Below, in pieces: positions 13,783-34,401 of a stretch of 64,000 nt of DNA. Every line of letters begins with the position of its first letter. Within the stretch, counting starts at the first letter, position 1. The notes beneath the pieces were generated by a model, which searched no databases, was not told the origin of the DNA, and saw only the letters and a program-made list of their open reading frames with translations. A program made the position numbers and the translations under genes. The stretch is from an uncultured Coriobacteriia bacterium (GTDB taxonomy: Bacteria > Actinomycetota > Coriobacteriia > Anaerosomatales > PHET01): contig OW818687.1 of NCBI GenBank assembly GCA_942493275.1, positions 1,519,522 through 1,583,521 of the forward strand. Reading direction: 5' to 3'.

Positions 13783-13820
13783 TTGTGCACACAGCCGCGG
13801 CGTGGACACCACGGAGCGGG

Positions 13821-13840: not shown

Positions 13841-13865
13841 CGAAGTTCGGAATCAGGGAGCAGCG

Positions 13866-14141
13866 ATGAAGGTCAAGACGCGCAAGGTTGGCAACAGCCT
13901 GACCGTAACGATCCCCAAAGAGCTGGTCAGCGAGATGGACCTCTCGGAGGACACCGACATGAACATCTTCGTGCGCGAGGGCACGGTCGTCCTCGAGCCG
14001 GTGGTATCTCGCTGGGACCGGCTCGTGGCTCGTGTTCGTGATCAGGCAGCCGAGCGCGGGCTGACCGAGGCAGACGTCCGCGCAGAGGTCAGCGCGTTGC
14101 GCGACAGGCTCTCCGACGCTGACGGCGACTGCGTCGAGTGA
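13866..14141 (+). CDS. AbrB/MazE/SpoVT-family antitoxin
   Basis: MKVKTRKVGNSLTVTIPKELVSEMDL matches the swapped-hairpin AbrB motif. GGGAG lies 6 nt upstream of ATG 13866, so the track start 13785 is rejected. The stop overlaps the toxin start. Confidence 0.8.
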   Translation: MKVKTRKVGNSLTVTIPKELVSEMDLSEDTDMNIFVREGTVVLEPVVSRWDRLVARVRDQAAERGLTEADVRAEVSALRDRLSDADGDCVE

Positions 14142-15459: not shown

Positions 15460-15630
15460 GGGACTCCTCAGGTTCGGCTGCTTGGCGGGGCACACCATCT
15501 CGCTGGAGTGGTGCACTGCAAACCCGCGCGTCTACACTCGCGGAGTTGTCCGCAAGGGGGACATACCCAAGAGTATTCGCGATTTCGGCGCGACGCCAAT
15601 CCGCCGAGGTCCATCCACGAGGAAGTGCCG

Positions 15631-17169: not shown

Positions 17170-17178
17170 GAGACCCTC

Positions 17179-18846
17179 ATGACTTCTGGACCCCGCCCCG
17201 TACACGCACCGCGCGGCACCGAGCTCTCGGCCCTGAGCTGGCAGACCGAGGCACCGCTGCGGATGCTCATGAACAACCTCGACCCCGACGTTGCCGAGCG
17301 ACCCGACGACCTCGTGGTCTACGGCGGCACCGGCCGGGCGGCCCGCTCGTGGGAGGCGTTCGACGCGCTCGTCCGCACGCTGCGCACCCTCAAGGCCGAC
17401 GAGACGATGCTCGTGCAAAGCGGCAAGCCGGTCGGCGTCATGCGCACGCACGAGTGGGCACCGCGGGTGCTGATCGCCAACAGCAATCTCGTCCCCGACT
17501 GGGCCGCCTGGCCCGAGTTCCGCCGCCTCGAGCATCTCGGCCTGACCATGTACGGGCAGATGACGGCAGGCAGCTGGATCTACATCGGCACGCAGGGCAT
17601 CGTCCAGGGCACCTACGAGACCTTCGCCGCGATTGCCGAGAAGCGCTTCGGCGGCACGCTGGCCGGCACCCTCACAGTCACCGGAGGCTGCGGCGGCATG
17701 GGTGGCGCGCAGCCGCTCGCGGTCACTATGAACGGCGGCGCGGTACTCATCGTCGACGTCGACAGCTCCCGGCTCGAGCGGCGCGTACGCGAGCGCTACC
17801 TCGACGAGTGGACGAGCAACCTCGACGACGCCGTTGCCCGCGTGCTGGCCGCGAAGCGCGAGCGCAGGCCGCTGTCGGTGGGGCTCGAGGGCAACTGCGC
17901 CTACGTGCTGCCGGAGCTGCTGCGCCGCGGCATCGAGGTCGATATCGTCACCGATCAGACCTCGGCCCACGACCCGCTCTCGTACCTGCCGCTCGCGGTG
18001 CCCTTCGAGGAGTGGCACGCGTTCGCCGAACGCGACCCGGAGGGCTTCACCGAGGCCGCTCGCGAGTCCATGGCCCGGCACGTCGAGGCGATGGTGGGCT
18101 TCATGGACGGCGGCGCCGAGGTCTTCGACTACGGCAACTCGATTCGAGCCGAGGCAGAGCTCGGCGGCTTCGACCGCGCATGGGCGTTTCCCGGCTTCGT
18201 GCCCGCCTACATCCGACCGCTGTTCTGCGAGGGCAAGGGGCCGTTCCGGTGGGCCGCGCTCTCGGGCGACCCGGCCGACATCGCCGCCACGGATCGCGCG
18301 GTGCTCGAGCTCTTCCCGGACAACGAGCCGCTCCACCGCTGGATCAGCCAGGCTTCCGAGAAGATCGCGTTCCAGGGACTACCGGCGCGCATCTGCTGGC
18401 TCGGCTACGGCGAGCGCGACAAGGCGGGCGCCCGCTTCAACGAGATGGTCGCGAGCGGCGAGCTCTCGGCCCCCATCGTCATCGGCCGAGACCACCTCGA
18501 CTGCGGGTCGGTCGCGAGCCCGTATCGCGAGACCGAGGCGATGCTCGACGGCTCCGACGCGATCGCTGACTGGCCGCTCCTGAACGCGCTCGTCAACACC
18601 GCGTCCGGCGCCACGTGGGTGAGCATCCACCACGGGGGCGGGGTTGGCATCGGGCGCTCGATCCACTCGGGCCAGGTCACCGTCGCCGATGGCACTCCGC
18701 TCGCCGCCGAGAAGATCTCGCGCGTGCTGACCAACGACCCCGGCATGGGTGTAGTCCGGCACGTGGACGCGGGCTACGACCGCGCTGTCGAGGTCGCCGA
18801 GGAGCGCGACGTTCGGATCCCGATGCGCGAGAACGGCCCGGCATGA
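17179..18846 (+). CDS. hutU: Urocanate hydratase
   Basis: Full-length 555 aa. Motifs include [24 protein letters not shown] and [13 protein letters not shown]. Confidence 0.95.
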
Positions 18847-20018
18847 GCGCGACGCTCTTCGACAACATCGGCGAGCTCGTCACCTGCGACGCGCGCCTGG
18901 GCGACGAGTCGCCGCTCGGCGTGATCCGCAACGCCGCCCTCATCGCTGAGGACGACCGCATCGCCTGGGTCGGTACCTCCGCCCAGGCGCCGGCTGCGGA
19001 CGCGCGCGTCGACCTCGGCGAGCGGGCCGTGGTCCCGGGCTTCGTCGACTCGCACACGCACCTCGTGTTCGCGGGCGAGCGCTCCGCCGAGTTCGCTGCG
19101 CGGATGGCGGGCGAGCCCTACACCGGCGGCGGCATCGCCACGACCGTCGCGGCCACGAGGGCCGCTGGCGACGACGCCCTGCGCGCGTCCGCGGCCGTAC
19201 GACTCGCCGAGATGCGCGCGTTTGGTACCACCACTGTGGAGGCAAAGAGCGGCTACGGGCTCGACGTCGACAACGAGGCGCGACTGCTGCGCATCAGCTC
19301 CGAATTCACGTCCGAGACCACCTTCCTCGGCGCGCATGTCGTCCCACACGAGTTCGCCGAGAACCGCTCGGGCTACGTCCAGCTCGTGTGCGGCCCGATG
19401 CTTGAAGCCTGTGCGCCGTTCGCACGCTGGATCGACGTCTTCTGCGACCAGGGCGCCTTCACCGCCGAGGAGACGCGCGCGGTCCTTGCAGCCGGCGTCG
19501 CAGCCGGCCTGCTCCCGCGCGTGCACGGCAACCAGCTCGCGTACGGGGCCGGGGCGCAGATTGCTGCCGAGTTCGGCGCCGCGAGCGTGGACCACTGCAC
19601 GTTCCTCTCGGACAGCGACGTGGCTGCGCTGCATGACGCTGGAGTCGTCGCCACGCTCCTGCCCGGTGCCGAGTTCTCCACCCGCTCGCCGTACCCGGAC
19701 GCGCGGCGTCTGCTTGATGCCGGTGTCACCGTCGCGCTCGCGACCGACTGCAACCCCGGTAGCAGCTACGTGACCTCGATGGCGTTCGTGATCGCGCTCG
19801 CCGTGCGCGAGATGCGCATGACGCCTGCCGAGGCGCTGCTGGCGGCGACGGTCGGGGGAGCGGCCGCGCTGCGGCGTGACGACATCGGTCGGCTCGCGCC
19901 CGGCTCCCGCGCCGACTTCTCGGTTCTCGACGCGCCGAGCCACCTTCACCTGGCGTACCGGCCAGGGTCGCGGGTTGTTGCGGAGACGGGGATCGGCGGG
20001 TGCAAGTGCGTGGGGTGA
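18843..20018 (+). CDS. hutI: Imidazolonepropionase
   Basis: [16 protein letters not shown]..., [16 protein letters not shown] and [14 protein letters not shown] 18843 overlaps the hutU stop as ATGA, so the track start 18615 is rejected. Confidence 0.9.
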
Positions 20019-20129: not shown

Positions 20130-21260
20130 TCAGAAGCCTGCTGCATCGGATGTGTCCCTTCTTTGCTCGGATACGTGCTGTGCAAGATCAGCGGCCAACG
20201 CACAGAGGGACTCGGCGACCGCGCTCAGATCTAGGACGTGGTCGACGCAGCCCTGTTCGATGGCGGCCTTGGGCATTCCCCACACGATTGCGGTGCGCTG
20301 TGATTCAGCGATCGTGATACCGCCCGCGTCCTTCACGAGGCGCATTCCATCGGCTCCGTCCGCCCCCATGCCCGTCAACAGGACTGCCAGGGTACCTGCG
20401 CCGTAGACGGCGGCCGCATCAGACATCGTCACATCCACCGAGGGCATGTGTACCGTGTCCGGCGGACGGCGATCTAGTCTGACGATTCGGGTGCCGTCAC
20501 CCGTCTGCACGACGTGCATCTGCTCGCCCGCACGCGCCACGAGTACTCGGCCGGGGCGGATCACGTCACCGTCTGCGGCTTCCTTCACTGCGAGTTCGCT
20601 GAGGCCGTTGAGCCGCCTCGCGAGTTCGGTGGTGAACCTTCTCGGCATGTGCTGTACGACAAGGATAGGCAGAGGAAAGTCACCCGGAAGCGATGACAAG
20701 ATGCTCGCCAGCGCAGGCGGCCCACCGGTGGAACAGCCGATAACCACAAGGGAGTCGCCTTGGGACGGACACGACCCTGAATGATGGGGCTTGGGTGGGG
20801 CCGCGTGCGGCCGCTCCGCCGCACGCGAGGCGAAGTGGGAGGGGTCGACGCCGGCCGCGATGCGGACCTTGTCCAGAAGCTCCTCGCCAATCGCTGGGAT
20901 GTTCATGTTGGGGTAGAGCGTGGGTTTGGCAACGACATCGATCGCGCCGATGCTGAGTGCCTCGACCGACTCATGTGCATTCGAGGTGGTGAGCGCACTC
21001 ACCATGACGACCGGCAGTGGTGACTCCGACATGATCCGCCGCAGCGTCTCGAGACCGTCAGCACCCGGCATCAGCACGTCGAGAGTGATTACGTCGGGGC
21101 GGTGGAGCGCCACGGCTGCGAGTGCTTCTTCGGATGAGGCCGCGCTCGCCACCACCTGGATGTCGGGAGCGGCATTGAGGATGCGTGTGAGAGCTTTGCG
21201 GACGAATGGCGAGTCATCGACCACCAGCACCCTGATGACGAGGTCGGCAGTCGCATTCAT
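20130..21260 (-). CDS. cheB: Chemotaxis response-regulator protein-glutamate methylesterase
   Basis: Receiver motif is VLVVDDSPFVRKAL..ITLDVLMPGADG. The methylesterase domain shows IGCSTGGPPAL and VLLTGMGADG. ATG 21260 overlaps the cheR stop. The track start 21500 is an Arg-rich extension. Confidence 0.9.
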   Translation of the reverse strand: MNATADLVIRVLVVDDSPFVRKALTRILNAAPDIQVVASAASSEEALAAVALHRPDVITLDVLMPGADGLETLRRIMSESPLPVVMVSALTTSNAHESVEALSIGAIDVVAKPTLYPNMNIPAIGEELLDKVRIAAGVDPSHFASRAAERPHAAPPKPHHSGSCPSQGDSLVVIGCSTGGPPALASILSSLPGDFPLPILVVQHMPRRFTTELARRLNGLSELAVKEAADGDVIRPGRVLVARAGEQMHVVQTGDGTRIVRLDRRPPDTVHMPSVDVTMSDAAAVYGAGTLAVLLTGMGADGADGMRLVKDAGGITIAESQRTAIVWGMPKAAIEQGCVDHVLDLSAVAESLCALAADLAQHVSEQRRDTSDAAGF

Positions 21261-22114
21261 GCACGCCTCGCGGCTGCCACATATCCGGCTACGGGAGAAT
21301 CCGCGCATGCCGGCACTACCCCTGGGGCTTGGTAGGCCAGACATCCACCAGGCCGTACGACGCGCATGTCGTCTCGGATGCCGAACAGCGACTCCGAGTG
21401 ACCGAGAAACAGGAGTCCTCCGGGTGCCATGCGCCGAATGAGGTTGTCGATAACCACGCGCTTGTGCGCTGCATCGAAGTAGATGAGCGCGTTTCGACAC
21501 ATCACAACGTCGAAGCCGCCGCCAGCGGCTGCTTCAGGGCTTTCGAGCAGGTTCGCCCGCTCGAAACGCACGGCATCTCGATAGCGTGACGCGAGGCGCA
21601 GTGCCGAACCCTCAGGGCTGAAGTGCGTGTCGAGGTACCGTCCCTCGACGCCGCGGAATGAATGCTGCCCGTACACTCCTCGCCTTGCCCGATCGAGCGC
21701 CCTGGAGCTGATGTCGATGCCGGTGATGTCGCACCGATCGAGCACTCTACGGTCATCGAGGACCATCGCAAGCGAGTACGGCTCCTCGCCGCTCGAGCAC
21801 GCCGCGCACAGAATTCGCAGATGCTCCCGCGACTCGGCCAGGTCCGCGATGGCGTCGAAATGCGCAAGCTCTCTGAAGAAATAGGTCTCATTGTTCACGA
21901 CCGCGTCTATCAATCCTTGTGCGAGCAGCCCGCCTTCGTACTTCACGCGCTGGTAATAGTCGAAGAACGTCTCGCACTCCGTCTCGGCTAATTGGGGCGC
22001 CAGGCGGCCCGCGAGCAGGAAGGTGCGCTCGCGGTCAAATGTCATGCCCACGAGGCTACGGACCAGCTCGGCAAGTAGCCGTCCTTCTGTCTCCGACATT
22101 TCCGGTCGTCGCAT
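21257..22114 (-). CDS. cheR: Chemotaxis protein methyltransferase (paralog 1)
   Basis: ETYFFRELAHFD, CAACSSGEEPYSLAM and VVMCRNALIYFD. ATG 22114 overlaps the upstream stop by 1 nt; ATG 22099 is an alternative start. Confidence 0.85.
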   Translation of the reverse strand: MRRPEMSETEGRLLAELVRSLVGMTFDRERTFLLAGRLAPQLAETECETFFDYYQRVKYEGGLLAQGLIDAVVNNETYFFRELAHFDAIADLAESREHLRILCAACSSGEEPYSLAMVLDDRRVLDRCDITGIDISSRALDRARRGVYGQHSFRGVEGRYLDTHFSPEGSALRLASRYRDAVRFERANLLESPEAAAGGGFDVVMCRNALIYFDAAHKRVVIDNLIRRMAPGGLLFLGHSESLFGIRDDMRVVRPGGCLAYQAPGVVPACADSPVAGYVAAARRA

Positions 22115-24318
22115 CACGCGTGAGCGCCGTTCGTGCCTAGCGCGAACTCCATCGGGAAGCGGATGCCCGGGTCGGCGTCCAGTGTGATGGCCGTGATGAT
22201 CTCGGCCGCCTCGGGCGTGTGGCAAGCGCACAGCGCCAGTGCCGAGAGGAGCGCATTGTGGGCGCGGCCTGCTCTGATATCGCACTCCAGGATCGAGTAG
22301 CCCGCCGGGCCGAGAGTGGCAAGCGCAGCGCGGGCATCGCCGCCGACCTCCGGGTCAGTCAACAGTTGTTCCAGGCCAGCCAGAGTCTCGCTTGAGCAGC
22401 CGGGTTCAACGCCGCGTGTGGCGGCCCGTCGTACCGTGGGATCGACATCGCAAAGTGCCTCGGCGACAACGACGTGCATGTCCGAGGGGGAGACGGATGC
22501 CACAAGCTCGACCGCAGCCGCGCGCACGTTCCAAGCCGAGTCCCCGAGCGCCGGCAGCAGGTACGTGCAGGCCTCGCGGCTCATCGCGGTACGGGCGCAC
22601 GCGCGGACGACGGCTTCCCTCACTTCGCTGAACTCGGATGCCGCAAGTCGCGCGAGTTGTCGGTTCAACCTGTCGTGCACCGGGCCGTCCAGTACACGCA
22701 GCGCGGCCACGACCACGCGCGGGTCCTCGTCGCCGAGCAGGTAGGCGACCAGGAAGTCCCCGCTGTGGGAGTGATCGTACGCGTGCCGGGCGACAGCGGA
22801 GCGCACGAGCGCACTCTCATCTTCGGCCCACGTCGCGACAACGTCGAGCTCCGGCTGCTGAGTCGTCAGTGCAAGATCGACAGCGGCAGCACGCACAGCA
22901 GCATCAGGGTCGCAGAGAAGCGACTCGGTCACCGTGTGGGTTGCGAGCGCCGGTGTCGCTCGGAGCGCGCGCGCCACGGCTGCGCGAACCTGCGCAGACT
23001 CGTCGCGCGCACACGCTTCGGCCAGCCGCATCGCGCACGGTGAGGGGCTGCACGCAGCGAGCGCACGGGCGGCCGACACGCGCGTCGCGCGGTCGCCCGT
23101 GCGGATCAGCGTCTCAAGCCAGCCGCAGTCCTCGATGCCGTGATCGAGCAGCCAGTCGAGGGCGGTCGCTCTGACGCCGGCGTCCGGATCGGTCAGGCAG
23201 CCGATGACGCCGGTCACTGCCGTGTCGGCTGAGAGCACACCGGCGAGCGCCAGGCCACGCACCCCTGCGTCAGTGTCATCGATGAGCCCGAGAAGCAGGG
23301 AGCCCTGCAGCGGGCGCCGGCACGCTTCGTGTGCCGCGAGGAGCCTTCGGGTTACCACCGGGGAATGCGCGGCGTGGAGGATCACCGACTCCTCGGCCGG
23401 AGGGGTGCAGGCAAGGACCTCGGCTGCGAGGTCGTACAATCCGGGCTCGTCGGCGACATCGAACAGTATCTCGGCGAAGCGCGCATCGTGAAGGTGGCTG
23501 ATCACGGTGAGTGCCGTTCGGGACGACTCGCCACCGCAGCGCAGCATGTGGTGGAGCGCCGTGAAAGCGTGATCGCCGACTGGTGGCATCGGGGCCATGA
23601 GCGACCGCACGGCGCTCTCAAGTGACATGGGCGCTGAGGCGAGCAGCCGACCGACGCTGATGACGAGCGCACCGGCGGCGGCCGGACCGCAGTCTGCCAG
23701 CGCCGCGCACAGTGAAGGAAGCGCTCGCAGATCGCCTATCAGACCCAGGGCGTTGATGGCGACTCCGCCTAGGAGGTCATCGTCGACCATGGCGAGCAGC
23801 GGCTCCACGGCATCGCGCGTGCCGAATCGTCCCAGCGCCTCCGCGGCAGGCGCGGCGAGCCAGCGGTCCTCTTCCAGGGCACGCAGCAACAAGGGTGTGA
23901 CTGCGGGACCGCCGATGCGCCCGAGCGCCTCGACGATCATGTACCTGACGTTGAGGTCCTCGTCGCGATCGAAGAGATCCCGCAGGAGCGGGACGGCAGC
24001 ATCGGAGCCAGTCTGACCGATTGCCACGGCGCACAGGATGCGTACGCGCTCATCGCCGCTCACGAGACCGTCGACCAGCAAGGGGAGCGACGTGTCGGCT
24101 CTCTTGATGAGGGCCTTGAGCGCGGCATTGCGCGTGCCGGGGTCGTCGTGGGCCACAAGCGCCAGCAGCCTGGTGTCTATCTCGGTGTCGCCCAGAGACG
24201 CGATGATGGCCGTGGCGTGACGACGCCCCTGCCAATCATCGCTGCTGAGCTCGGCTAGGAGCGTTTCAGGGCACGTTTCCGACCCCTTCAGCCCATCGGC
24301 GAGTGTTCCCTCAGGCAC
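22114..24318 (-). CDS. HEAT-repeat (PBS-lyase-HEAT-like) protein embedded in the che operon
   Basis: About 730 aa of recurring D..VR..A..AL(G/A)..G units, for example DERVRILCAVAIGQTG, LNVRYMIVEALGRIGG and AGVRATALDWLL. I place the start at GTG 24318 (AAGGGGGA 7 nt upstream), overlapping the cheR-like stop by 8 nt. ATG 24336 is possible. Confidence 0.8.
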   Translation of the reverse strand: MPEGTLADGLKGSETCPETLLAELSSDDWQGRRHATAIIASLGDTEIDTRLLALVAHDDPGTRNAALKALIKRADTSLPLLVDGLVSGDERVRILCAVAIGQTGSDAAVPLLRDLFDRDEDLNVRYMIVEALGRIGGPAVTPLLLRALEEDRWLAAPAAEALGRFGTRDAVEPLLAMVDDDLLGGVAINALGLIGDLRALPSLCAALADCGPAAAGALVISVGRLLASAPMSLESAVRSLMAPMPPVGDHAFTALHHMLRCGGESSRTALTVISHLHDARFAEILFDVADEPGLYDLAAEVLACTPPAEESVILHAAHSPVVTRRLLAAHEACRRPLQGSLLLGLIDDTDAGVRGLALAGVLSADTAVTGVIGCLTDPDAGVRATALDWLLDHGIEDCGWLETLIRTGDRATRVSAARALAACSPSPCAMRLAEACARDESAQVRAAVARALRATPALATHTVTESLLCDPDAAVRAAAVDLALTTQQPELDVVATWAEDESALVRSAVARHAYDHSHSGDFLVAYLLGDEDPRVVVAALRVLDGPVHDRLNRQLARLAASEFSEVREAVVRACARTAMSREACTYLLPALGDSAWNVRAAAVELVASVSPSDMHVVVAEALCDVDPTVRRAATRGVEPGCSSETLAGLEQLLTDPEVGGDARAALATLGPAGYSILECDIRAGRAHNALLSALALCACHTPEAAEIITAITLDADPGIRFPMEFALGTNGAHA

Positions 24319-25219
24319 AGTGCGATCCCCCTTCATCGGTGAGCGAAATTCCCCCGGGCTTGCGGTACAGGACCGCTCCCCCGAGATCGACGACTTCGAA
24401 CCTGTGCTGCATGACGTGTAGTAGCTCGGCGTCCCCCAGGAATAGCCAGCCACCCGGGCGCAGCGCCTCATAGAGCCGCTCGATCAGGGCGGGCTGAGAC
24501 GCGAGCGGGAAGTAGATCATCACGTTGCGACAGAAGATGATGTCGAGATCAGCGTCGGGCGCCGGCAGTCGAAGATTGTGCCGCTGGAAGGTAATCAACC
24601 GGCGGACGCGGTCACTCATACGCACTGTGAGTGCGTCCGCGGGCTCCGTATACGCCTCCAACGTGCGGGTCCACCCAGGTGCCACTCGCGCGATAGCGGA
24701 TTCGCTGTAGATACCGTTGGCCGCGACCTCGAGCGCATCCGCTGAGATGTCGGTAGCAAGGATGCTCACGACCCACGCGCGAGGGAACTTGAGAGCATCC
24801 AGTAGCGCCACGCCGATGGAGTACGGTTCTTCGCCCGTCGAGCACGCGGCTGACCACACCCGCAGCCGAAGTGGAGTGAGTGGCGAGCGTGAAGCTGCCC
24901 GCTGCGCCATCTCCACCTCTCGAAGCACCGGTCCGGCGAGCAGATCGAACTGCCTCGGGATTCGAAAGAAGTACGTCTCTTTCACGGTAATCGAGCCGAC
25001 CACGTCTTCGATGAGCGACTCGCGCTCAGCCTGCTGCATGCACTCAGCTGCCTCGATCAGCGAGGCGAGCCCGTCGTACCCTCGCTGACTGGCTGCCCGA
25101 TCTATTGCGCGACTGCGGACACCCGGATCGCGCAGCCCCGAAGCGCCCCCCGTGACTGCGAGAGCCAGTCGGTCGAAGCGAGTCAAGGCCTCACATCCAT
25201 CGGGCGTGCGCACTGACAC
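24311..25219 (-). CDS. CheR-type methyltransferase (paralog 2)
   Basis: ETYFFRIPRQFD, SAACSTGEEPYSIG and IIFCRNVMIYF. Confidence 0.85.
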   Translation of the reverse strand: MSVRTPDGCEALTRFDRLALAVTGGASGLRDPGVRSRAIDRAASQRGYDGLASLIEAAECMQQAERESLIEDVVGSITVKETYFFRIPRQFDLLAGPVLREVEMAQRAASRSPLTPLRLRVWSAACSTGEEPYSIGVALLDALKFPRAWVVSILATDISADALEVAANGIYSESAIARVAPGWTRTLEAYTEPADALTVRMSDRVRRLITFQRHNLRLPAPDADLDIIFCRNVMIYFPLASQPALIERLYEALRPGGWLFLGDAELLHVMQHRFEVVDLGGAVLYRKPGGISLTDEGGSHCA

Positions 25220-25241
25220 GTCTTGACGCCGTTCTATTCGG

Positions 25242-25279
25242 GGCCGGCGGACGGGACCTCAAAGTCCCGTCCGCCGGCC
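25242..25279 (-). terminator. 16-bp perfect GC hairpin between mcp and the second cheR (intra-operon attenuator/mRNA-stabiliser or partial terminator)
   Basis: GGCCGGCGGACGGGAC (25242..25257) pairs with GTCCCGTCCGCCGGCC (25264..25279) across a 6-nt loop. It starts 5 nt after the mcp stop. No U-tract follows on the transcribed strand. Confidence 0.45.
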
Positions 25280-25283
25280 GAGG

Positions 25284-27671
25284 CTAACCTTCGTTGACGA
25301 CGAATCCCTTGACGAGCTCGCGCAGCGTCTCCGACTGCGACGCCAGGTCGTTCGACGATCTGGTGAGCTCGCCGAGGGCGTCGACGTTCTGACGCGTCGT
25401 CTGCGAGATGTTCTCCATGGCGATGACCATCTGCTCGCCGCCGCGCTTCTGCTCGCCAGTCGCCGACACCACCTGCACGACCAGGTCATTGGTCCGCTCC
25501 ACGGCCTCGACTATCTGCTGGGTTCCGCTCGCCTGCTCGCGCACGGCGTTGTCCACCTGCGAGTGGAGGCTGCTCATCGATTCGACGGCCTGAAGTACCT
25601 GTCGACTGCCCTCCGACTGCTCGCGAGTGGCGTTCTGGATCTGGCGCATGACGTCCTCAACCTCTGTGAACGCCTCGACAACACCCGCCAGTGCTTCCTG
25701 CGCCTGCTCGCCAATGACGCGTGACTGAGCGGCCTCCTGTGCTCCGTTGAGCGTCGCGGTCACGGCGATCTCGGTGTCTTGCTGAATGGCCGAGATGAGC
25801 GATGCGATCTCTTTGGTCGACGAGGTGGCCCGCTCGGCGAGATCGCGCACCGCGTCAGCCACGACCGCGAATCCACGTCCGTGTTCCCCTGCACGCGCCG
25901 CCTCGATTGCGGCGTTGAGCGCGAGAAGGTTGGTCTGCTCGGCGATATCGTCGATGACCTCGGTAATCTCGCCGATCTCGCGCGACCGCTGGCCGAGTGA
26001 CTTCATGACGTCCGCGGTGTTCTCGATCGCACCTGCGATGGAGTCCATCGAATCGGCCATCGCGCCCACGGACTCCTGGCCCACCGACGCCGCGCTCATG
26101 GCCTTGCTGGTCAGATCCGACACGCCTCCGGCCCGCTCCGCGACCTGGTCGATCGACGCGGCCATCTGGTCGATCGAGGCGCTGGTCTCTTGCACGGCGC
26201 CACTCAGGCCGTCCATGTTACGGGCGACCTCTTCGATGGAGGCAGCCATCTGGGAGATGGTTGCGCTGGTCTCGTTGGCGGCGCCCCCGAGCTGCTCGGC
26301 GTTGGATGCGACCTGGTCGATCGAAGCGGCCATCTGCTCAATCGAGGAGCTCGTCTCGTCTGTGGCAGCGCTCTGCGCTTCAGCCCCGACGTTCATCTGC
26401 CTTGTGGTGACCGAGATCTCCTCGGCGGCCACGGCGAGTTCGTTGGCCGCCTCGGTGACGGCGCGCGCGACCGCGTTCAGGTTATCGAGGTTGGCCTTCT
26501 CGACCCTGATGTCTCGGATGATCTCGAGTCCGCCGATGGTCTCGCCGTTCGCGTTATAGATGGGTGCCGCGCTTGCAAGAATCGGAATCTCCTCGCCCTG
26601 CCGGTTCTTGATGGCGACTTCCGCCCCCCGAATCGCCGTGCCCGACGACATGCACGACTTGATGGCGCATCCGTTCTCGCAGATATTCGCGTTGAAGATG
26701 TCTCTGCACTGACGACCCATGGCTTCGTCCACGCTGAAGCCGGTGAGCCGTGCCGCCGCTTCGTTGAAGTACGTGATCCGGCGATCTTGGTCGGCTACGA
26801 AGAACGGGTCCGAGATGCCCTGCATGATCGAGTCGGACCGCTCCTGCTGGTCCTGGATGTCGCGAATCCGGGCGCCGATGTCGTCGGCCATCTTGTTGAG
26901 CGAGGCGCCGAGTGCCCCGATCTCGTCGCGGGACTTGATGTCGAGTCGCTGCGTGAGGTCGCCTGTTGAGATCGCCTCAGCGAACGCGGTCGCGCGAACG
27001 AGGGGACGGGTGATGGACAGCGAGAGCAGGATGCCGAGCCCGAGCGCTGAGACGACGCCGATGACAAGCACCACCACCAGCGCCGTGGTTGACTGAGCCG
27101 CCTGCTCGTCGGCTGCCTCCGCACTCTGAGCCGCCGCAACCGTGTTGATATCCACGACCTTCGAGAGCGCAGCATGCGCTGCACGCTCCGCGTCGCGCTC
27201 GGAGCTGACGTTGTGGTTGTACGCCGCGGTGAGGTGGGCCTGCTTGCCGCTGGCCATATAGACTCGGTAGAGCCTGATGAACTCCTCGTGCTCAGCCTTC
27301 CATGCGCCGCCGAGCGGCTCGTACTCCTGCCAGGCGACCTCCTCTTCGTCGGTCTGAGGGAGAGGCAGGTAGGTGCGCTGGGCCGCTTCGAACTCGGTCC
27401 ACAGCGCCTCGGTCTTTGCCAGGAGCTCCGTGGTCTCAGCGGCGTTCGTCGACAGGAGCATCGCGCGCTCCTGCGCTTTGATGTCAGCCTGAACCATGCC
27501 CATCTGCTGCAAGGCGACGATCGACGGAAGCCGGACGGCCGAGATGTCCTCCTCCATCGCCTCGACCTGCTTGACTCCCACGTAGCCGACCGCTCCGATC
27601 ACCGCGGCGATCACCGCAACGCTCAAGAAGCCCGCAATCAGTTTCGCTCCCACCGTGAGACGCAACTTCAC
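25284..27671 (-). CDS. Methyl-accepting chemotaxis protein (TM - helical sensor - TM - HAMP - PAS - MCP signalling domain)
   Basis: The signalling hairpin reads [35 protein letters not shown]. There are two TM segments. The PAS region reads [23 protein letters not shown]. Confidence 0.9.
26120..26375 (-). repeat. Three tandem 84-bp (28-aa, four-heptad) coding repeats in the MCP coiled coil
   Basis: GCCATCTG recurs at 26161, 26245 and 26329, exactly 84 bp apart. The peptides are [56 protein letters not shown] and [28 protein letters not shown]. Confidence 0.8.
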
Positions 27672-28201
27672 TGCGCCACCTCCACTTCTGCTGTGCCGGC
27701 GGCGCCGGCGAGATTGCCCATTGACTCGTGCTCCGCTGAACTGAACATTTCGCGGATATCAAGTGCGACGATCATGCGTTCATCGACGCGAGTGATGCCC
27801 TGGATGAAGTCGCTGTCGACGGTGGTTACCAGGTCGGGGAGCGTCTCGATCGACGAACTGGGCACCCGGACCACTTCGACCACTGCGTCCACGATCGTGC
27901 CGACGGTGCGATCGCCCGCATTCAGCACGACAATCCGACTGGTCCGCCCCTTGTCCTGTGCCGGCAGACCGAACCGGGTGCGCAGGTCCACGACCGCGAT
28001 CATTCGTCCCCTGAGGTTGATCACGCCGAGTACGAAACGGGGAGCGTTAGGAATCTCCGTGATGCGCACGTTGCGCATCCGGATGATCTCTTGCACGTCC
28101 ACGATCCTGAAGCCGTACTCCTCGTCAGCCAGCATGAAGGTGACGAGTTGGATGGTCTCATCGCTCTCAGCCTGTGCGACAGGCGTCCCTGCTGCTGCCA
28201 T
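27668..28201 (-). CDS. cheW: Chemotaxis coupling protein
   Basis: [45 protein letters not shown] 28201 follows AAGGAG, so the track start 28264 is rejected. The stop overlaps the mcp start. Confidence 0.9.
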
Positions 28202-30257
28202 GGTGTTCTCCTTTCTGCTGTAGGCGATGCGTCCCGGACTCAGCCGGTTCGCATGCGAATTCATGACGTGAGTTGCGCGCCCCGGCCAGCCGGGCTATGC
28301 GCTCGACGTCGAGAATGGGGGCGACGGAACCGTCGCCGAGGATCGTTGCGCCGCTGATCCCCGGCGTTACTCCGAGTGCGTCCTCGAGGTTCTTCACGAC
28401 GATCTCCTGCCTGCCCGCAAGCTCGTCGACGAGCAGACCGACACGGTGCCCGGATACGTTCACCTCGACCACGAAGAACTTGGCGGCGTCGCTGTCGTAC
28501 CCGGCGACGTTCAGGAGCTGCCCAACACTGATGAGCGGAAGCGTGTCCCCTCGGGAGTCAAGGACTCTCACACCTCTGACCGATGAGCACTGGTCCGCAC
28601 GTACGCGCATGACCTCTGACACGACGGACAGCGGCACGCAGAACAGTCCGGCGCCAATGCGCACCAGCAGAGCGGGCACGATTGCGAGCGTCAGCGGGAG
28701 GCGAAGGCGAAACGAGGTTCCATGCCCGGGGCTGCTGTCCACCTCGATGGTTCCGCCGATTTCGACGAGGCATCGCTGCACCACATCGAGACCAACACCG
28801 CGTCCGGAGACGTCGGTCACCTGGTCCGCCGTGCTGAACCCCGGCTGCATGATGATTTCGGCCAGGAGTTCGCTGTCGCCGCCTCCGGCATCGAGATCGA
28901 CGCCGGGCGCATGCGCGGCGATCGCCTGCAGGTCAAGGCCCTGTCCGTCGTCGGAAACGTCGATCACGATATGGCCACCCTCGTGCACGGCCGAGAGGGT
29001 CACGGTTCCGTGTCGGGGCTTTCCCGCAGCCACTCGGTTATCGGGGGGTTCGATTCCGTGGCCGCACGCGTTGCGAAGAAGATGGAGGATCGGGTCTTCA
29101 ATCTGTTCGATGAGCCGCTTGTCGAGTTCGGTCTCCTCGCCCGAGAGGCACAGCCGAATCTCCTTCTTCTCGGCACGTGCTATGTCGCGAACCGCTCTCG
29201 GATACTTCGCGAACAGCTGACCCACAGGGACCATACGCATGCGCATGACGCGCTCTTGGACCCCGGCGAGCAGAGCCGACATCTCCTTGACCGAGACGGT
29301 GAGCTCGCTGACGGTGTCGTCTCTGGGATAGCGGTCGTGCAGGCCCGCCGAGAGGTCGACCAGCCGCGTTCGCGCGGTGACTAGTTCCCCCATCAGGTCC
29401 ATCAACGTATCGAGGCGGCGTATGTCCACGCGGACCGCCTGTGCGCTCACCGACGTGCCCTGGGCGGGATCGCCCAGCCGGAGCACGTCCGTCAAGGGGT
29501 TCGACTCCTCCCGCCGGATTCTCGATGCCGCGAGACCCAATGCGTCGGCGATTGACTCTGTCGACAGCTGAGTGAGCACGAGGACCTCGACCGTCACATC
29601 CGCGACATCCACGTCCAGTGACTCGAGGGAGCCGCCGGACTCAGGACGGGCTCGTATCTCCACGATCTCGCCCTCGATGGCGCGCTCCACCGATTCAGGC
29701 GATAGGGAGCCCTGACGCAGCTCGATGCCCCATCGAAGCGAGAGGACGAGAGCGTCCAATTCCGCCGATGTCTCGCGGAGCCGGTGGAGCGCGTATTCGC
29801 TCCAATCGGCCCGCGGGTGGTCGGACGAGCGGCCGCTGGCCGCATCACTCATGCCGCCATCGAGAAAGCGGCTCACCTCTGCCAGCGTTGCGGCGGCCGA
29901 TGCGCACGATACACCTTCACCAGCTTTGGCGGTGGCGAGCTTCAAGGTGTCCACGCATGAGAACAGGACGTCGAGCGTGGATGAATCGAGCGCGAGCGCC
30001 TCTGACCGGAGCCGGTCAAGGACGTTCTCACAGGCGTGCGCGAGCTCCTTGACCTCTCTAAAGTCGAACATCGAGGCGAGGCCCTTCACCGTGTGCGTGG
30101 CCCGAAACATCTCGTCGACCCGCTCGCGAGACATGGGCTGACCCGCTTCGCACTGTCTCTCAAGCTCCAGGAGGTCTCGTTCCAGAACTCGGAAATGCTC
30201 ATCGGCCTCGGCAAGGAACTCGCGAAGCATCGCTTCGTCGGAGTACTCGTTGCTCAC
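28167..30257 (-). CDS. cheA: Chemotaxis histidine kinase
   Basis: Hpt motif is FRATHTVKGLASMF. The ATPase domain shows LLRNACGHGIEP, DDGQGLD and GRGVGLDVV. A CheW-like domain sits at the C-terminus. GTG 30257 overlaps the cheY stop. Confidence 0.95.
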   Translation of the reverse strand: MSNEYSDEAMLREFLAEADEHFRVLERDLLELERQCEAGQPMSRERVDEMFRATHTVKGLASMFDFREVKELAHACENVLDRLRSEALALDSSTLDVLFSCVDTLKLATAKAGEGVSCASAAATLAEVSRFLDGGMSDAASGRSSDHPRADWSEYALHRLRETSAELDALVLSLRWGIELRQGSLSPESVERAIEGEIVEIRARPESGGSLESLDVDVADVTVEVLVLTQLSTESIADALGLAASRIRREESNPLTDVLRLGDPAQGTSVSAQAVRVDIRRLDTLMDLMGELVTARTRLVDLSAGLHDRYPRDDTVSELTVSVKEMSALLAGVQERVMRMRMVPVGQLFAKYPRAVRDIARAEKKEIRLCLSGEETELDKRLIEQIEDPILHLLRNACGHGIEPPDNRVAAGKPRHGTVTLSAVHEGGHIVIDVSDDGQGLDLQAIAAHAPGVDLDAGGGDSELLAEIIMQPGFSTADQVTDVSGRGVGLDVVQRCLVEIGGTIEVDSSPGHGTSFRLRLPLTLAIVPALLVRIGAGLFCVPLSVVSEVMRVRADQCSSVRGVRVLDSRGDTLPLISVGQLLNVAGYDSDAAKFFVVEVNVSGHRVGLLVDELAGRQEIVVKNLEDALGVTPGISGATILGDGSVAPILDVERIARLAGARNSRHEFACEPAESGTHRLQQKGEHHGSSRDACRTG

Positions 30258-30643
30258 AACCTGACCGCCGGATCTCCAAACATCCGCTCGACGACCGCAT
30301 GCAGTTTCTGCGGCTGGAACGGCTTGACGAGATACTCGGTCGCACCCGCCTGGATGCCTCGACGGATGTCGTCGTCGCTACCCTCGGTGGTGATGACCAC
30401 GATGGGCAGTTCGCGGTGCCGCTCATCAGCGCGTATGTTCCGGATGAGTTCGAGCCCGTTCATCTCCGGCATGTTGATGTCGACCACCACCAGGTCGAAG
30501 GCGCCGGTTCCAAGCGCCTCCAGTGCCTCGACTCCGTTGCCGGCCTGGCCGATGGAGCAGCCCCAGTACTTGCCCAGCGCGAATGCGATCAGCATCCGCA
30601 TGGTCGGGGAGTCGTCGACGACGAGCACATCGTTGAGGGTCAT
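30254..30643 (-). CDS. cheY: Single-domain response regulator
   Basis: VLVVDDSPTMR, DLVVVDINMPEMNG and YLVKPF. Confidence 0.9.
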   Translation of the reverse strand: MTLNDVLVVDDSPTMRMLIAFALGKYWGCSIGQAGNGVEALEALGTGAFDLVVVDINMPEMNGLELIRNIRADERHRELPIVVITTEGSDDDIRRGIQAGATEYLVKPFQPQKLHAVVERMFGDPAVRL

Positions 30644-30996
30644 CGGAGCCCTCCGGAGTCGAGATGGTGACGCGCTTCGTCAGCGCTGGCAAACGTCGAC
30701 CAACCGGTGTCGATGCGCCAGGCGTCGAGAGAGGACTGAATGGGGGGTGGCACGACGAGCGCGTGATCTGAAGGGTCGAAAGCCTGGTGCTCGCTTGCGA
30801 CCATCAGGACCGCCACGATGGCGCTGCCCATCGCGCTGAGTTCGGAGCAGTCGGCGATCATCTGCGCTCCGGGCGCCCTCAGCGACTCGCGCACATACTC
30901 GCGAAGAACCTGTGCTTGTTCCGTTGCCGAGGAGGCAGCGTCCAGCACTGCCTCAATGCGCCCGCCTTGTGGCGGCGCATAACTGTGTCGTGCCAT
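30640..30996 (-). CDS. First gene of the che operon; STAS (anti-sigma-antagonist)-like small protein (tentative)
   Basis: 118 aa. MIADCSELSAMGSAIVAVLMVAS...LVVPPPIQSSLDAWRIDTGWSTFASADEA has a STAS-like layout. The stop overlaps the cheY start. The family call is weak. Confidence 0.45.
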   Translation of the reverse strand: MARHSYAPPQGGRIEAVLDAASSATEQAQVLREYVRESLRAPGAQMIADCSELSAMGSAIVAVLMVASEHQAFDPSDHALVVPPPIQSSLDAWRIDTGWSTFASADEARHHLDSGGLR

Positions 30997-31127
30997 TGGT
31001 TATCCACCCCTGCTGTGTGACCCCTCACGGATTACCCCACCCATATTCATTAACGGCTGAATGCGGTTAGAGGTGATTAGGAAACCGAGGTTCCCGAAAG
31101 TACCAATCCGGAATGTAGGGTGAAGAA

Positions 31128-31150
31128 CCGGCGCGGCACCGGGCGCCCGG
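31128..31150 (-). terminator. GC hairpin after the GGDEF-EAL gene
   Basis: On the minus strand the sequence is CCGGGCGCCCGGUGCCGCGCCGG followed by UUCUUCACCC. It forms a 7-bp stem with one bulge and lies 8 nt after the stop. Confidence 0.4.
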
Positions 31151-31158
31151 ACGCTTCG

Positions 31159-33627
31159 CTAGGCCGAGAGGACTCGACCGGCGCCGACCAGGTTTCCCTG
31201 GACGCAGTCGAAGCCAAGCTCCCCGGCCAACTCGAGTTCGCGCTGCGTTTCCACAAAGCAGGCGGTCGCCAGCGCGCCGCTCTCGTGTGCGGCAGACACG
31301 ATCGAGGCCAGCGTCGTACGTGCGTGGGATTGGGATGCCGCATCTTTGAGCATGAGACCGTCGGCCTTGAGCTCGCCAAAGCCCAACTTCGCCAAGAGCG
31401 ACGCCTGTGGCTCGGATGCGGTGCGGTGGAGCACCAGAGGGCACCCGAAGGAGCGCAGCTCGCTGAGCCACTGTGAGACGCCGTCGATTCCGAGGTGCCT
31501 CGCGCCACCCACTTCGAAACGCAGGCGCGCGGGGTCCACGCCGTGTTCCAGCAAGGAGTGCTCGATCATGAGCAGCAGCCCCTCGTCCAGAAGGTCCTCC
31601 GCGCCGAGGTGAACCGAACAGGAGGCGAGCTCATCATCGGCGAGGGCCCTGATGGCCCTGCTCACCACGATACGGGTCACCCCCGGCATGAGCCCAACCC
31701 CTCGTGCGGCGGGAAGGAACGCTGAGGGTCGCAGGATACGGTCGCCGTGGCTCAGACGCACAAAGCACTCGTGGTACTCGGTCACGCCGGACGCCAGGCG
31801 CATGACCTGCTGCGCCTCGAGTCGCAATGTGCCGTGGGCGACCGCATCCCTTACCGACGCCAGAAGCTGTTCGCGGGTCAGCTCGGCGGAGCCCTCGGCT
31901 GTGACGGCGCAGCCGCCGCCTCGGCCCTTTGCGACATACATCGCGCGATCAGCCGAGTGCAGCGCCTCGTCGACGTTCTGACCGAGCAGGGGAGTCACCC
32001 CGGTGCTGAGGCTCACGGACACCGGCGGCGAGGCGACTGGAATTCGGAGGTTCTTCATGCGACTGCACAGCTCCTCGGCGAGGGCCAGCGCTTCACCCAG
32101 GTCGTGCTCTGGCAGCAGCATCGCGAACTCATCACCGCACACACGGAAGACGCGAGCACTGCCCGGAGCTGCCGAGGAGAGGCATATGGCGACCGAGACC
32201 AGCACCTCGTCGCCCGCCTGGTGTCCGTGGGTGTCGTTCACGCGCTTGAAGTCGTCGATGTCGATGAACAGCAGATTGCCCCGACCGCACAGGTCCGCGC
32301 CCTGCAGCAGTTCGACCACCGCTGACTCCAGGCTGCGGCGATTGGGCAGTCCCGTGAGCGGGTCGTGCGACGCCAGGTGTGCCAGCCGGTCGTTGATCTC
32401 CCGAGTGTCCGTGATATCGATCGCGCCTCCGATGAAGCCGGCGAAGACCCCGTCGGTGGTCTCTACAGGACGGCCGCTGTCACGGAGCCAGCGGTACTCG
32501 CCGTCTCGGCGTTGCAGGCGGTACTCGATCTCGAATGATCGCCGTCTTGCGAACGCATCACTCACGGTCGATCTCACCAGTTCCAGGTCGTCCGCATGGA
32601 TGCCGGTCGACCATCCGCCGTGCATCTCGCTGTCGGTTCCGCCGCCGGTGAAGCGCAGCCACTCCGCGCTGAAGTAGTCGCGCAGACAGCTCTTGCTGGT
32701 GGCCCAGACCATGACCGGCAGTCCCTCCAGCTGTCGCACCAGTCTGTCGCGCTCGCTCGCGAGGATCTGTTGCGCCCGCGCGAGTTCGGTGATGTCGTCT
32801 AGCGTCAGCACCAGACCCTCGGATTTGCCGCTGATGTCATTGAGGCGCCGAATGCCCATGCGGAATCGCCGCGCCGGACCTCTCGCGAATGAGATGTCGT
32901 CCTCGAAGCGGTCCTCTTCGACCGCCGATTTGAGGAAACGCTCAACATACGGGTCCAACTCCGGCACCAGCACGGGAAGGATGCCCTGCGCATAGTAGGT
33001 GGCGCCCGCGCGGTCCGTCAGCCCTGCGAGTACAGCACCTTGCCGGTTCGCGTGCTGAACCTTGCCGCGTGCGTCGAAGATGAAGGCCGCAGCGGGCGTG
33101 GCCTCGAATGCGGTGAGCAGATTGTTCTTCTCGTTGACCGCGTCACGCACGCGAGCAGCCATCCGCTCATAATCGACCGGCCTGTCAGTGGCCGTCCACT
33201 CACGAATGAGCACAACCTCTGACAGATCGAAGAAGCGGGTTACGAGATTGTGACACCGCGAATTCTCTCGGGTGGTGGGGTCCCGCTCCAACAGGCCCAC
33301 AAATCCGTCGCGCATGAACTTGAGTAGGGCCACGTAGTCGGCGAGCGGGATTCCGCGGTCTCGGTGGAGGCGCGCCTCGCCGATCGCGAAGGCCCATGTG
33401 GCGTCCTCGATCATCGGCGGCCACCGCTTGTCGATCGGAGAGTGCTCGGCAAGCTCGGCGAAGTGGATGAACGACTCCGTAATGCCCTGCACTCCCAGCC
33501 GCCACGCCTCAGAGAGGGTCGAGGTGTAGGCCGTATAGCCCCCGCGTGCCGAGAGGGTCAGCCAGGTGTCGAGGAGCTCGCACTCGTGCTCGCGCAGGAC
33601 TCGCCGGAGCTCGCCCTGGTCGATCAT
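31159..33627 (-). CDS. PAS-PAS-GGDEF-EAL protein with variant signature motifs (CGDEF, ECF)
   Basis: GGDEF domain: LTGLPNRRSLE, FIDIDDFKRVNDTHGHQAGDEVL and RVCGDEFAMLL. EAL domain: EAQQVMRL..YHECFVRL...ACFVETQRELELAGELGFDCVQGNL. ATG 33627 overlaps the upstream stop as ATGA. Confidence 0.9.
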   Translation of the reverse strand: MIDQGELRRVLREHECELLDTWLTLSARGGYTAYTSTLSEAWRLGVQGITESFIHFAELAEHSPIDKRWPPMIEDATWAFAIGEARLHRDRGIPLADYVALLKFMRDGFVGLLERDPTTRENSRCHNLVTRFFDLSEVVLIREWTATDRPVDYERMAARVRDAVNEKNNLLTAFEATPAAAFIFDARGKVQHANRQGAVLAGLTDRAGATYYAQGILPVLVPELDPYVERFLKSAVEEDRFEDDISFARGPARRFRMGIRRLNDISGKSEGLVLTLDDITELARAQQILASERDRLVRQLEGLPVMVWATSKSCLRDYFSAEWLRFTGGGTDSEMHGGWSTGIHADDLELVRSTVSDAFARRRSFEIEYRLQRRDGEYRWLRDSGRPVETTDGVFAGFIGGAIDITDTREINDRLAHLASHDPLTGLPNRRSLESAVVELLQGADLCGRGNLLFIDIDDFKRVNDTHGHQAGDEVLVSVAICLSSAAPGSARVFRVCGDEFAMLLPEHDLGEALALAEELCSRMKNLRIPVASPPVSVSLSTGVTPLLGQNVDEALHSADRAMYVAKGRGGGCAVTAEGSAELTREQLLASVRDAVAHGTLRLEAQQVMRLASGVTEYHECFVRLSHGDRILRPSAFLPAARGVGLMPGVTRIVVSRAIRALADDELASCSVHLGAEDLLDEGLLLMIEHSLLEHGVDPARLRFEVGGARHLGIDGVSQWLSELRSFGCPLVLHRTASEPQASLLAKLGFGELKADGLMLKDAASQSHARTTLASIVSAAHESGALATACFVETQRELELAGELGFDCVQGNLVGAGRVLSA

Positions 33628-34271
33628 GGCGACACCAGTCCCCGCCGGATCGCTTCGACCGCAGCCTGGCCTCGGGATGAGACCCCGAGCTTCTGGTAGA
33701 CGCGGTACAGGTGATTTTTGACCGTGCGGTCACTGATGTCGAGGCGCTGGGCGATCGCCAGGTTCGTCAGCCCGTCGACGACATGGCCGAGGATCTGAAG
33801 TTCGCGCACGCTCAGACTTGGATTGAGTGCGCCTCGCTCGCGCAGGGAGCGAGGACGGCCTATCACCCTGCGTGCAGCCTTGCCCGCGCTCGCGGACGGG
33901 TTGGCAACCGTCGAGACGAGCAGGCTCGCGAACCCCGCCATCCTGAGCGGATTCTCCATGGTCGTGGCGCCGAGCGCGGCCATCTGAATCGAGATCGCGG
34001 GATCGCTCAGCATGCATCCGAAGACCACGACCCCTACGCCTGGAAACATCCGCTGGCAGTCGGTCACGTCTGTCATCAACTGCTGGGCGCTGCGGTAATG
34101 GGCGCTGATCGCCACCACGTCCGCAGTGAAACCTGACTCGGCGCAGCGGCTGAGCTCAACCATCGTGGACGCTCGTCCGACGCACGTGGTCAGGGGGCTG
34201 TCGTTGAGCGCGAACTCGGCGCCATCGACGCAGAGCGTCGACTGCCCGTACAGGAGCACCTTTGTCGGCAT
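33624..34271 (-). CDS. LuxR-family HTH protein with an atypical (pseudo-)receiver N-terminus
   Basis: HTH region: LSVRELQILGHVVDGLTNLAIAQRLDISDRTVKNHLYRVYQKLGV. The N-terminal region lacks the DD pair and the phospho-Asp context (VLLYGQS, VVAISAH). ATG 34271 follows GAGGG; ATG 34298 or 34328 is possible. Confidence 0.7.
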   Translation of the reverse strand: MPTKVLLYGQSTLCVDGAEFALNDSPLTTCVGRASTMVELSRCAESGFTADVVAISAHYRSAQQLMTDVTDCQRMFPGVGVVVFGCMLSDPAISIQMAALGATTMENPLRMAGFASLLVSTVANPSASAGKAARRVIGRPRSLRERGALNPSLSVRELQILGHVVDGLTNLAIAQRLDISDRTVKNHLYRVYQKLGVSSRGQAAVEAIRRGLVSP

Positions 34272-34401
34272 TGTCTTGACCCTCGCTTGAGATTGCATTC
34301 TTTGCAGCCCGCCGCTTGTCTCGGGCACCTCAGGGTACCATCGTGAGGGCGAGACTAACCAATACGGTGCGGGCTACATACCCAGTCGGCTAGCCCTCGG
34401 C

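Follow-up and report, generated by a model that had tools for sequence, protein, structure and literature searches.

Che7 of Myxococcus xanthus is among the very few chemosensory pathways for which a CheY partner outside motility is known, and has so far been regarded as a curiosity of the myxobacteria. In 2014, Darnell et al. reportedly found that CheY7 binds this partner, Cpc7, directly. PMC9040617 cites Darnell et al. 2014 for the action of Che7 through a HEAT-repeat protein, and links the pathway to development and stress, not to motility. The che7 locus tags of M. xanthus are consecutive, with room for a single gene from mcp7 to cheR7 (PMC3945109). Here, we describe a nine-gene chemosensory operon that includes a HEAT gene and is located on the minus strand, at positions 20130-30996, of a 64,000-nt stretch of contig OW818687.1. 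This whole stretch of 64 kb is referred to below as the window.

Gene content and Che7-type order of the operon

Nine co-directional ORFs, each with one terminal stop in translation, make up the operon in the order STAS-like first gene, cheY, cheA, cheW, mcp, cheR1, HEAT gene, cheR2 and cheB, where cheR1 and cheR2 are the genes upstream and downstream of the HEAT gene. Domains were assigned with Pfam and NCBIfam, and 38 ORFs of the window were scanned. A preliminary description of this DNA had proposed such an operon; all of its ORFs were recovered in the positions given there, and the families agree, although that of the first gene is weakly supported. Its account of the junctions was reproduced exactly by computation. 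Overlaps of 4 nt join the first gene to cheY, cheY to cheA, cheW to mcp and cheR2 to cheB, and the remaining overlaps are 35 nt for cheA/cheW, 8 nt for cheR1/HEAT and 1 nt for HEAT/cheR2. The 64-nt spacing between mcp and cheR1 is the sole gap within the operon. Proteins identical to the HEAT, CheA and first-gene products are recorded for a single 2.5-Mb NCBI contig.

The core order cheY-cheA-cheW-mcp-HEAT-cheR-cheB, all on one strand, is shared with the M. xanthus che7 locus (L016), and the window operon has two further genes inserted. L016 includes genes for CheY (125 amino acids, aa), CheA, CheW (148 aa), MCP, a HEAT protein (788 aa), CheR (273 aa), CheB (348 aa), a fatty-acid desaturase and a PilZ protein. 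The sizes of its CheY, CheW, CheR and CheB are those published for Che7, and the CheA and MCP ORFs of 687 and 850 aa enclose the published products of 683 and 821 aa (PMC3945109). The CheA proteins of the two systems have the same architecture without a receiver domain, with domains at residues 10-105, 273-340, 387-523 and 529-656 in the window protein and at 14-111, 285-347, 397-529 and 535-664 in CheA7, and both systems have a separate single-domain CheY. Both also include a protein of 730-790 aa that consists of HEAT repeats throughout. The two HEAT proteins are collinear and 28% identical (E 6e-11), with residues 20-649 of the window protein aligned to residues 39-645 of its M. xanthus counterpart. 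Window CheR2 groups with CheR7, and the identities of the window proteins to the Che7 proteins are 28-43%. Since gene order, HEAT homology and the architecture of CheA and CheY agree, we assign the window operon, on these comparisons, to the Che7 type. The parallel to Che7 and Cpc7 drawn in the preliminary description was thus correct, and it goes further than that description could tell.

The two loci also differ. Che7 has a single CheR in the published account, whereas the window operon adds a CheR of a second clade between mcp and the HEAT gene as well as the small first gene. The PilZ and desaturase genes lie 3' of the cluster in M. xanthus, whereas a convergent hut operon occupies this place in the window. 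The window host, in addition, apparently has a Gram-positive-type envelope (see below).

A search of species-representative genomes with a profile of the myxobacterial HEAT proteins gave 253 confirmed relatives, identified through two peptide patterns. Eighty loci, mostly from Myxococcota, were retrieved from this search, and 69 of these are long enough for the full order to be read. The genes cheR and cheB directly follow the HEAT match in all 80 loci, and the order cheY-cheA-cheW-mcp-HEAT-cheR-cheB is complete in each of the 69. The full order is also present in Polyangium fumosum, and the mcp/cheW-HEAT-cheR-cheB core recurs in unrelated contigs from metagenomes or metagenome-assembled genomes (L002, L004, L005, L156, L157 and L171). 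All remote HEAT homologs for which the context was read are likewise encoded between mcp or cheW and cheR-cheB. Given the invariant order in 69 loci and the collinearity with the M. xanthus HEAT protein, the HEAT gene is, by the criterion of sequence, a conserved and defining core component of a known pathway type and not an oddity. Lack of conservation of the HEAT gene within the cluster would have counted against the preliminary description, and the 80 loci clearly show the contrary.

Table 1. Features of the operon and of the region directly upstream, with coordinates in the window.
Feature	Coordinates	Strand	Basis
GerE/LuxR-type regulator	33624-34328	-	Pfam GerE
PAS-GGDEF-EAL protein	31159-33627	-	Pfam PAS_4, PAS_3, GGDEF, EAL
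Intergenic region, 162 nt, 5' of first gene	30997..31158	.	probable promoter region
First gene, weakly STAS-like, 118 aa	30640..30996	-	sub-threshold Pfam STAS_2/STAS
CheY, single-domain response regulator, 129 aa	30254..30643	-	Pfam Response_reg (REC) E 6e-32
CheA, 696 aa	28167..30257	-	Pfam Hpt, H-kinase_dim, HATPase_c and CheW domains; no REC
CheW coupling protein, 177 aa	27668..28201	-	Pfam CheW E 1e-38
MCP, transmembrane, 795 aa	25284..27671	-	Pfam 4HB_MCP, HAMP, PAS, MCPsignal
CheR1 (upstream CheR), 302 aa	24311..25219	-	Pfam CheR E 4e-47
HEAT protein, 734 aa	22114..24318	-	Pfam HEAT_2 E 3e-49, six stretches
CheR2 (downstream CheR), 285 aa	21257..22114	-	Pfam CheR E 3e-47 and weak CheR_N
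CheB, REC and methylesterase, 376 aa	20130..21260	-	CheB_methylest E 2e-61, REC E 2e-23, NCBIfam CheB above cut-off

The catalytic or phosphorylation motifs of CheY, CheA, CheR1, CheR2 and CheB are intact. The CheY translation shows the DD acid pocket, the phospho-Asp within VVVDINMP and both the T and the K position, and that of CheB includes the catalytic motifs GCSTGG, QHMP and GMGADG. The receptor has an extracytoplasmic 4HB domain, HAMP and PAS domains and a long signalling hairpin, whose tip lies near residue 596 and whose arms are ~200 aa each. A match to the 44H receptor TM1143 covers 278 residues in both proteins; the net length difference over this core is therefore zero, and the window receptor is longer on either side of it. 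A scan for the methylation consensus [ASTG][ASTG]xx[EQ][EQ]xx[ASTG][ASTG] revealed five sites in the receptor, at residues 441, 455, 490, 528 and 736, where 0.37 would be expected. Four of the five are on the N-arm of the hairpin and would therefore provide sufficient work for two methyltransferases. The receptor does not carry a C-terminal pentapeptide.

The region between the first gene and the PAS-GGDEF-EAL gene is probably the promoter region of the operon, because no other gap from the PAS-GGDEF-EAL gene to cheB exceeds 64 nt. A consensus scan of this region found no sigma-70-like site or terminator above chance.

A second CheR lineage and a small first gene

The preliminary description had taken the two CheR proteins for a duplicated pair. 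Their identity is 34% and each falls in a clade of its own, which rules out a recent tandem duplication of cheR. CheR1 scores 160.6 bits against a cut-off of 27 with Pfam CheR, and its motifs FFR, CSTGEEPYS, TDIS and CRNVMIYF are intact. The Arg of FFR and the Tyr of CRNxxIYF are presumably Arg98 and Tyr235 in Salmonella CheR numbering. CheR1 aligns to the P. aeruginosa CheR1 (5XLY) across residues 37-286. It has no match to Pfam CheR_N, and its residues 37-80 align to the N-domain of 5XLY; members of the same clade in L090, L091 and L103 do match CheR_N. CheR2 aligns to Salmonella CheR (1AF7) across residues 3-245. In the public annotation CheR1 starts at Met61 (P0124, 242 aa), and the start of the ORF used here is a GTG at 25219. 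The 60 residues before Met61 are conserved in the ortholog P0125, which is 59% identical to CheR1, and the reading of 302 aa is therefore preferred.

In a neighbour-joining tree of 14 CheRs, the five upstream CheRs were monophyletic with a bootstrap of 100/100. This set was then enlarged to 42 with the upstream CheR of L103 and 27 CheRs from a second metagenome scan, most of which come from ordinary che clusters, and the six upstream CheRs again formed an exclusive clade (73/100 and 121/200). Thirteen downstream CheRs, including M. xanthus CheR7, form a separate clade (162/200), and the downstream CheR of every cluster with a single CheR has window CheR2 as its best match. The tree of the HEAT proteins is congruent with that of the downstream CheRs. 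Clusters with the cheR-HEAT-cheR triad fall in two clades of the HEAT tree, with the single-CheR cluster L002 nested among them, which suggests that the triad is of old origin and was followed by loss.

The triad was found in five further sources (L006 with L001, L007, L090, L091 and L103), which makes six independent sources in all, and within this sample the upstream clade occurs at the cheR-HEAT-cheR-cheB position alone. The upstream and downstream CheRs of these clusters are orthologous to those of the window, and their HEAT proteins are 786-796 aa long. L006, which encodes P0125, and the overlapping contig L001 (JGI metagenome 3300021174) jointly rebuild the same nine-gene operon in identical layout, with the small first gene and a receptor of the 4HB-HAMP-PAS type. 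CheY is the best-conserved protein between this operon and that of the window (93% identity), followed by the signalling domain of the MCP (87%) and by CheA, CheW, CheB and CheR2 (65-69%). Identities are lower for CheR1 (59%), the HEAT protein (51%) and the first-gene product (37%). The CheW ortholog in L006 is likewise 177 aa.

P0126 in L007 is followed by the N-terminus of a HEAT protein, and P0128 in L090 and P0134 in L091 both belong to a cheR-HEAT(796 aa)-cheR-cheB segment. L090, L091 and L103 differ from the window operon in that they do not include the first gene, have an extra cheW and show a different order of cheA and cheY. L091 (GCA_049472355.1) has a Gram-negative context that includes LpoB and multihaem cytochromes. 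The triad of L103 came from the second metagenome scan, in which 4 of 80 loci had a HEAT gene and the rest were mostly ordinary CheRs. A metagenome scan with a C-terminal signature of CheR1 gave no matches.

No paper describing a cheR-HEAT-cheR arrangement was found. The earlier view that it is uncharacterised can therefore be kept, but the arrangement is not peculiar to this genome, as the five further sources indicate. What is new here, the second CheR lineage and the small first gene, constitutes an uncharacterised Che7 variant.

The label of the first gene, which had been called STAS-like, holds in part. The ORF is present and STAS is its top Pfam family, but the matches to STAS_2 (E 0.003; 18.1 bits as compared with a cut-off of 29.2) and STAS (E 0.037) both stay under the gathering cut-offs. 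Its one true homolog among 1.84 billion representatives is P0361 (37-38% identity), which also matches STAS_2 (5.5e-5; 23.7 bits, sub-threshold) and STAS (0.015). As STAS is the top family for both orthologs, a STAS fold is possible. Alignment with hhalign to SpoIIAA/RsbV sequences gave a probability of 17%, and the DSSG-type motif with the phosphorylatable serine reads MGSA/IGSS. A PDB sequence search with the first gene gave noise only, and a single-sequence AlphaFold2 model (pLDDT 52) was unusable. P0362 (939 aa), a further candidate homolog, was rejected as a repetitive artefact. Judged by these comparisons, the first gene is small, lineage-specific and fast-evolving.

SpoIIE-type phosphatases dephosphorylate STAS proteins in partner-switching systems. 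A GAF-GAF-SpoIIE (PP2C) phosphatase is encoded at 58405-60177, 27 kb from the operon, and would be a candidate partner if the first gene is truly STAS-like.

The HEAT protein and the proposed pathway

The HEAT protein is made solely of HEAT repeats, and HEAT_PBS is also matched (E 1e-10). An AlphaFold2 model built from a nine-sequence family alignment (pLDDT 87.5, pTM 0.74) predicts 48 helices in one continuous solenoid. The top PDB matches of this model in Foldseek are SF3B1, CAND1, karyopherin-beta and the PP2A A subunit, which are multi-partner protein-binding scaffolds. The family is alignable along its full length, and residues 101-200 are its most conserved part (12 family members). A single close homolog of the window protein (51% identity) was found, along with many remote ones of full length; two peptide patterns for relatives of the window protein and this close homolog gave none in species-representative genomes, from which the source lineage is therefore missing as far as these patterns can tell.

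Two further HEAT proteins were recorded in the course of these searches. A 289-aa HEAT protein is encoded between cheY and cheA in L103 (865-1734). Its Pfam hits (83-154 and 127-152) have the same coordinates as the N-terminal hits of the 786-aa HEAT protein of L103, and it resembles a separate copy of the conserved N-module beside CheY. A 632-aa HEAT protein of Desulfocarbo indianensis (L009, 8677-12416) resembles the window protein and is encoded outside a che cluster, next to a PilZ protein, a HATPase protein and a single-domain REC protein. Hence, HEAT similarity alone is not diagnostic, and synteny is. The pairing of HEAT and REC proteins may thus exist without Che machinery.

The domain content, the intact catalytic motifs and the tight translational coupling indicate that the operon is apparently functional. 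We consider it rather likely that it encodes a complete Che7-type pathway in which phosphorylated CheY acts through the HEAT protein, as adaptor, on a non-motility output, with CheR2 and CheB responsible for adaptation and CheR1 for an extra input. The transmembrane receptor, with its 4HB domain, HAMP, cytoplasmic PAS and unusually long methylatable hairpin, would control CheA via CheW, and CheA would phosphorylate the single-domain CheY. By homology with CheY7 and Cpc7 of M. xanthus, phosphorylated CheY would then bind the 734-aa HEAT solenoid, which, as output adaptor, would relay the signal to a response other than motility. CheR2 and CheB, a pair that is present 3' of the HEAT gene in every relative, would methylate and demethylate the receptor for adaptation. 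CheR1, from its separate clade, would most likely provide a second methylation input, either on the N-arm sites of the receptor or in complex with the solenoid. The small, possibly STAS-like protein encoded first may have a part in the pathway as well.

Several observations weigh against this reading. The identity to the M. xanthus HEAT protein is 28%, and repeat proteins align easily. We infer that Cpc7 is the product of the HEAT gene between mcp7 and cheR7 (MXAN_6961) from the position and domain content of that gene. The window MCP is transmembrane and has 4HB, HAMP and PAS domains. Mcp7 has none of these three domains and is a soluble receptor, for which neither HAMP nor a transmembrane segment is listed (PMC3945109). 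No desaturase gene corresponding to Des7 is found near the window operon; the desaturase is also missing from the Polyangium cluster and is therefore probably not a core feature. In addition, the support for the upstream-CheR clade became moderate once 28 other CheRs had been added to the tree.

The position of the HEAT gene allows another role for its product, the main alternative to the reading above: that of a docking scaffold for CheR1, CheR2 and CheB at the long receptor that lacks a pentapeptide. In function, such a scaffold would correspond to the NWETF tether or, in CheR-TPR fusions, to the TPR domain, and it would be compatible with CheY binding. Without exception, the HEAT gene is placed after mcp (or cheW) and before cheR-cheB, and it is found beside cheY only as the extra small copy of L103. 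Its stop codon overlaps or abuts the start of cheR in the window and in the relatives, and in the triad it is translationally coupled to a cheR on either side. The congruence of the HEAT and downstream-CheR trees and the scaffold proteins matched by Foldseek also fit this role, as does the absence of a C-terminal pentapeptide from the MCP. Neither CheR has a TPR domain, in contrast to many ACF-type CheRs (PMC3447774). The CheR-TPR fusions of ACF pathways (FrzF and WspC) tie a helical-repeat module to the methyltransferase of a non-motility pathway (PMC3447774); however, the TPR is fused to CheR in those proteins, whereas the window has a separate 734-aa HEAT protein and CheRs without TPR. Gene adjacency, on the other hand, is no proof of a complex, and the sole experimental report connects the HEAT protein with the response regulator of Che7 and not with CheR or CheB (as cited in PMC9040617). 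A scaffold role is therefore regarded as possible, if on the unlikely side. That the HEAT protein is instead a methyl-accepting substrate of CheR1, an idea put forward in the preliminary description, has gained nothing from the analysis and appears very improbable. The catalytic motifs of CheR1 are intact, its clade is seen only next to a HEAT gene, and the two genes overlap by 8 nt, all of which would suit an enzyme and its substrate. However, the MCP-type methylation consensus is absent from the HEAT protein, whereas the five sites of the MCP, with four on the N-arm, are enough for two enzymes, and most HEAT-containing clusters, including that of M. xanthus, do not include CheR1.

An ordinary taxis pathway, with the HEAT protein as a switch-side CheY adaptor at a flagellar motor encoded elsewhere in the genome, is suggested by Halobacterium salinarum. 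There, the HEAT/PBS-lyase-type repeat protein OE2401F is likewise encoded among che genes and binds CheY, CheD and CheC2, and flagellar switching depends on it (PMC2666748). OE2401F differs in that it is archaeal, has DUF439/CheF and fla genes as neighbours and targets the switch of the archaellum. The extracytoplasmic 4HB sensor of the window receptor is typical of taxis-like receptors, and the window represents only 64 kb of the genome. Nevertheless, flagellar or pilus families gave no match among the 38 ORFs scanned in these 64 kb, in keeping with what had been noted at the outset. Pfam likewise detected no CheC, CheD, CheX or CheZ phosphatase and no CheV in the operon, enzymes of cyclic di-GMP (c-di-GMP) metabolism flank both this operon and its ortholog in L006, and Che7, the closest characterised relative, is tied to development and stress and not to motility (PMC9040617). 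We therefore consider a taxis pathway quite unlikely. A Wsp-type system would need a fusion of a response regulator with GGDEF, and in the window CheY is single-domain, while the GGDEF-EAL protein beside the operon combines these domains with PAS and lacks a receiver. A HEAT gene in the beta-group che clusters of Geobacter was considered for the comparison and dropped, as the paper concerned does not mention one.

A more far-reaching version of the pathway was also considered. The upstream CheR clade might be dedicated to the HEAT protein, with the CheRs and CheB assembling on it or modifying it, so that methylation would serve as a second memory at the level of the output, and the first gene and the c-di-GMP enzymes might tie the pathway to an output of the partner-switching or biofilm type in a host with a Gram-positive-type envelope. 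We know of no Che system with this mode of adaptation, and taken as a whole this version is unlikely.

Gene neighbourhood, host and significance

The preliminary description had pointed out a LuxR-like/GGDEF-EAL pair upstream of the operon, and the two genes were found there, overlapping each other by 4 nt and separated from the operon by 162 nt. The pair may be functionally linked to the operon. In L006, a gene for a PAS-HD_5 protein (1-849; HD-GYP with HHERMDGSGYP) is located in the equivalent position and encodes a near-identical PAS segment, and a PilZ gene (15433-16554 in L016) lies 3' of M. xanthus che7. A link to c-di-GMP thus appears to be a recurrent feature of this pathway type, as judged from gene context.

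The GC content is 64-72%, and four large putative surface proteins, with three repeats each of the cell-wall-binding CWB2 type, are encoded in the window, at 6308-11194, 11407-13728, 38703-40637 and 44481-52607. One of them has at least 13 RCC1 repeats and cadherin-like domains, and another, of 2708 aa, has four Big_9/cadherin-like domains. These features point to a Gram-positive-type or S-layer-bearing envelope. Because of the GC content and the four CWB2 proteins, a host of the high-GC Gram-positive type is plausible.

Other genes of the window were recorded as well. The hut set at 15025-20018, convergent with cheB, encodes a HutH-like aromatic amino acid lyase, a urocanase and a HutI-like amidohydrolase. 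The start of the HutH-like ORF is probably mis-set, because ~210 extra residues precede the lyase domain at the N-terminus. A 1444-aa STAND NTPase with DUF4062 and NACHT/AAA_16 domains is encoded at 1873-6207; the DUF4062-NACHT architecture is common among STAND proteins that act in signalling or against phages. A MazE-like antitoxin gene is located at 13785-14141, and an aldehyde:ferredoxin oxidoreductase encoded at 55523-57856 hints at an anaerobic lifestyle.

The HEAT gene emerges from this comparison as a fixed component of a widespread cluster type, as the 253 relatives confirmed from two peptide patterns indicate. The Che7 type reaches well beyond Myxococcota, into an apparent high-GC organism with a Gram-positive-type wall, and it includes a recurrent variant in which a second methyltransferase lineage is coupled directly to the HEAT gene. 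The location of this gene in the adaptation half of the operon, between two CheRs, poses the question of whether the HEAT protein serves as adaptor for the output, as scaffold for adaptation, or in both roles. This question bears on the way in which Che-like pathways are connected to outputs other than motility.

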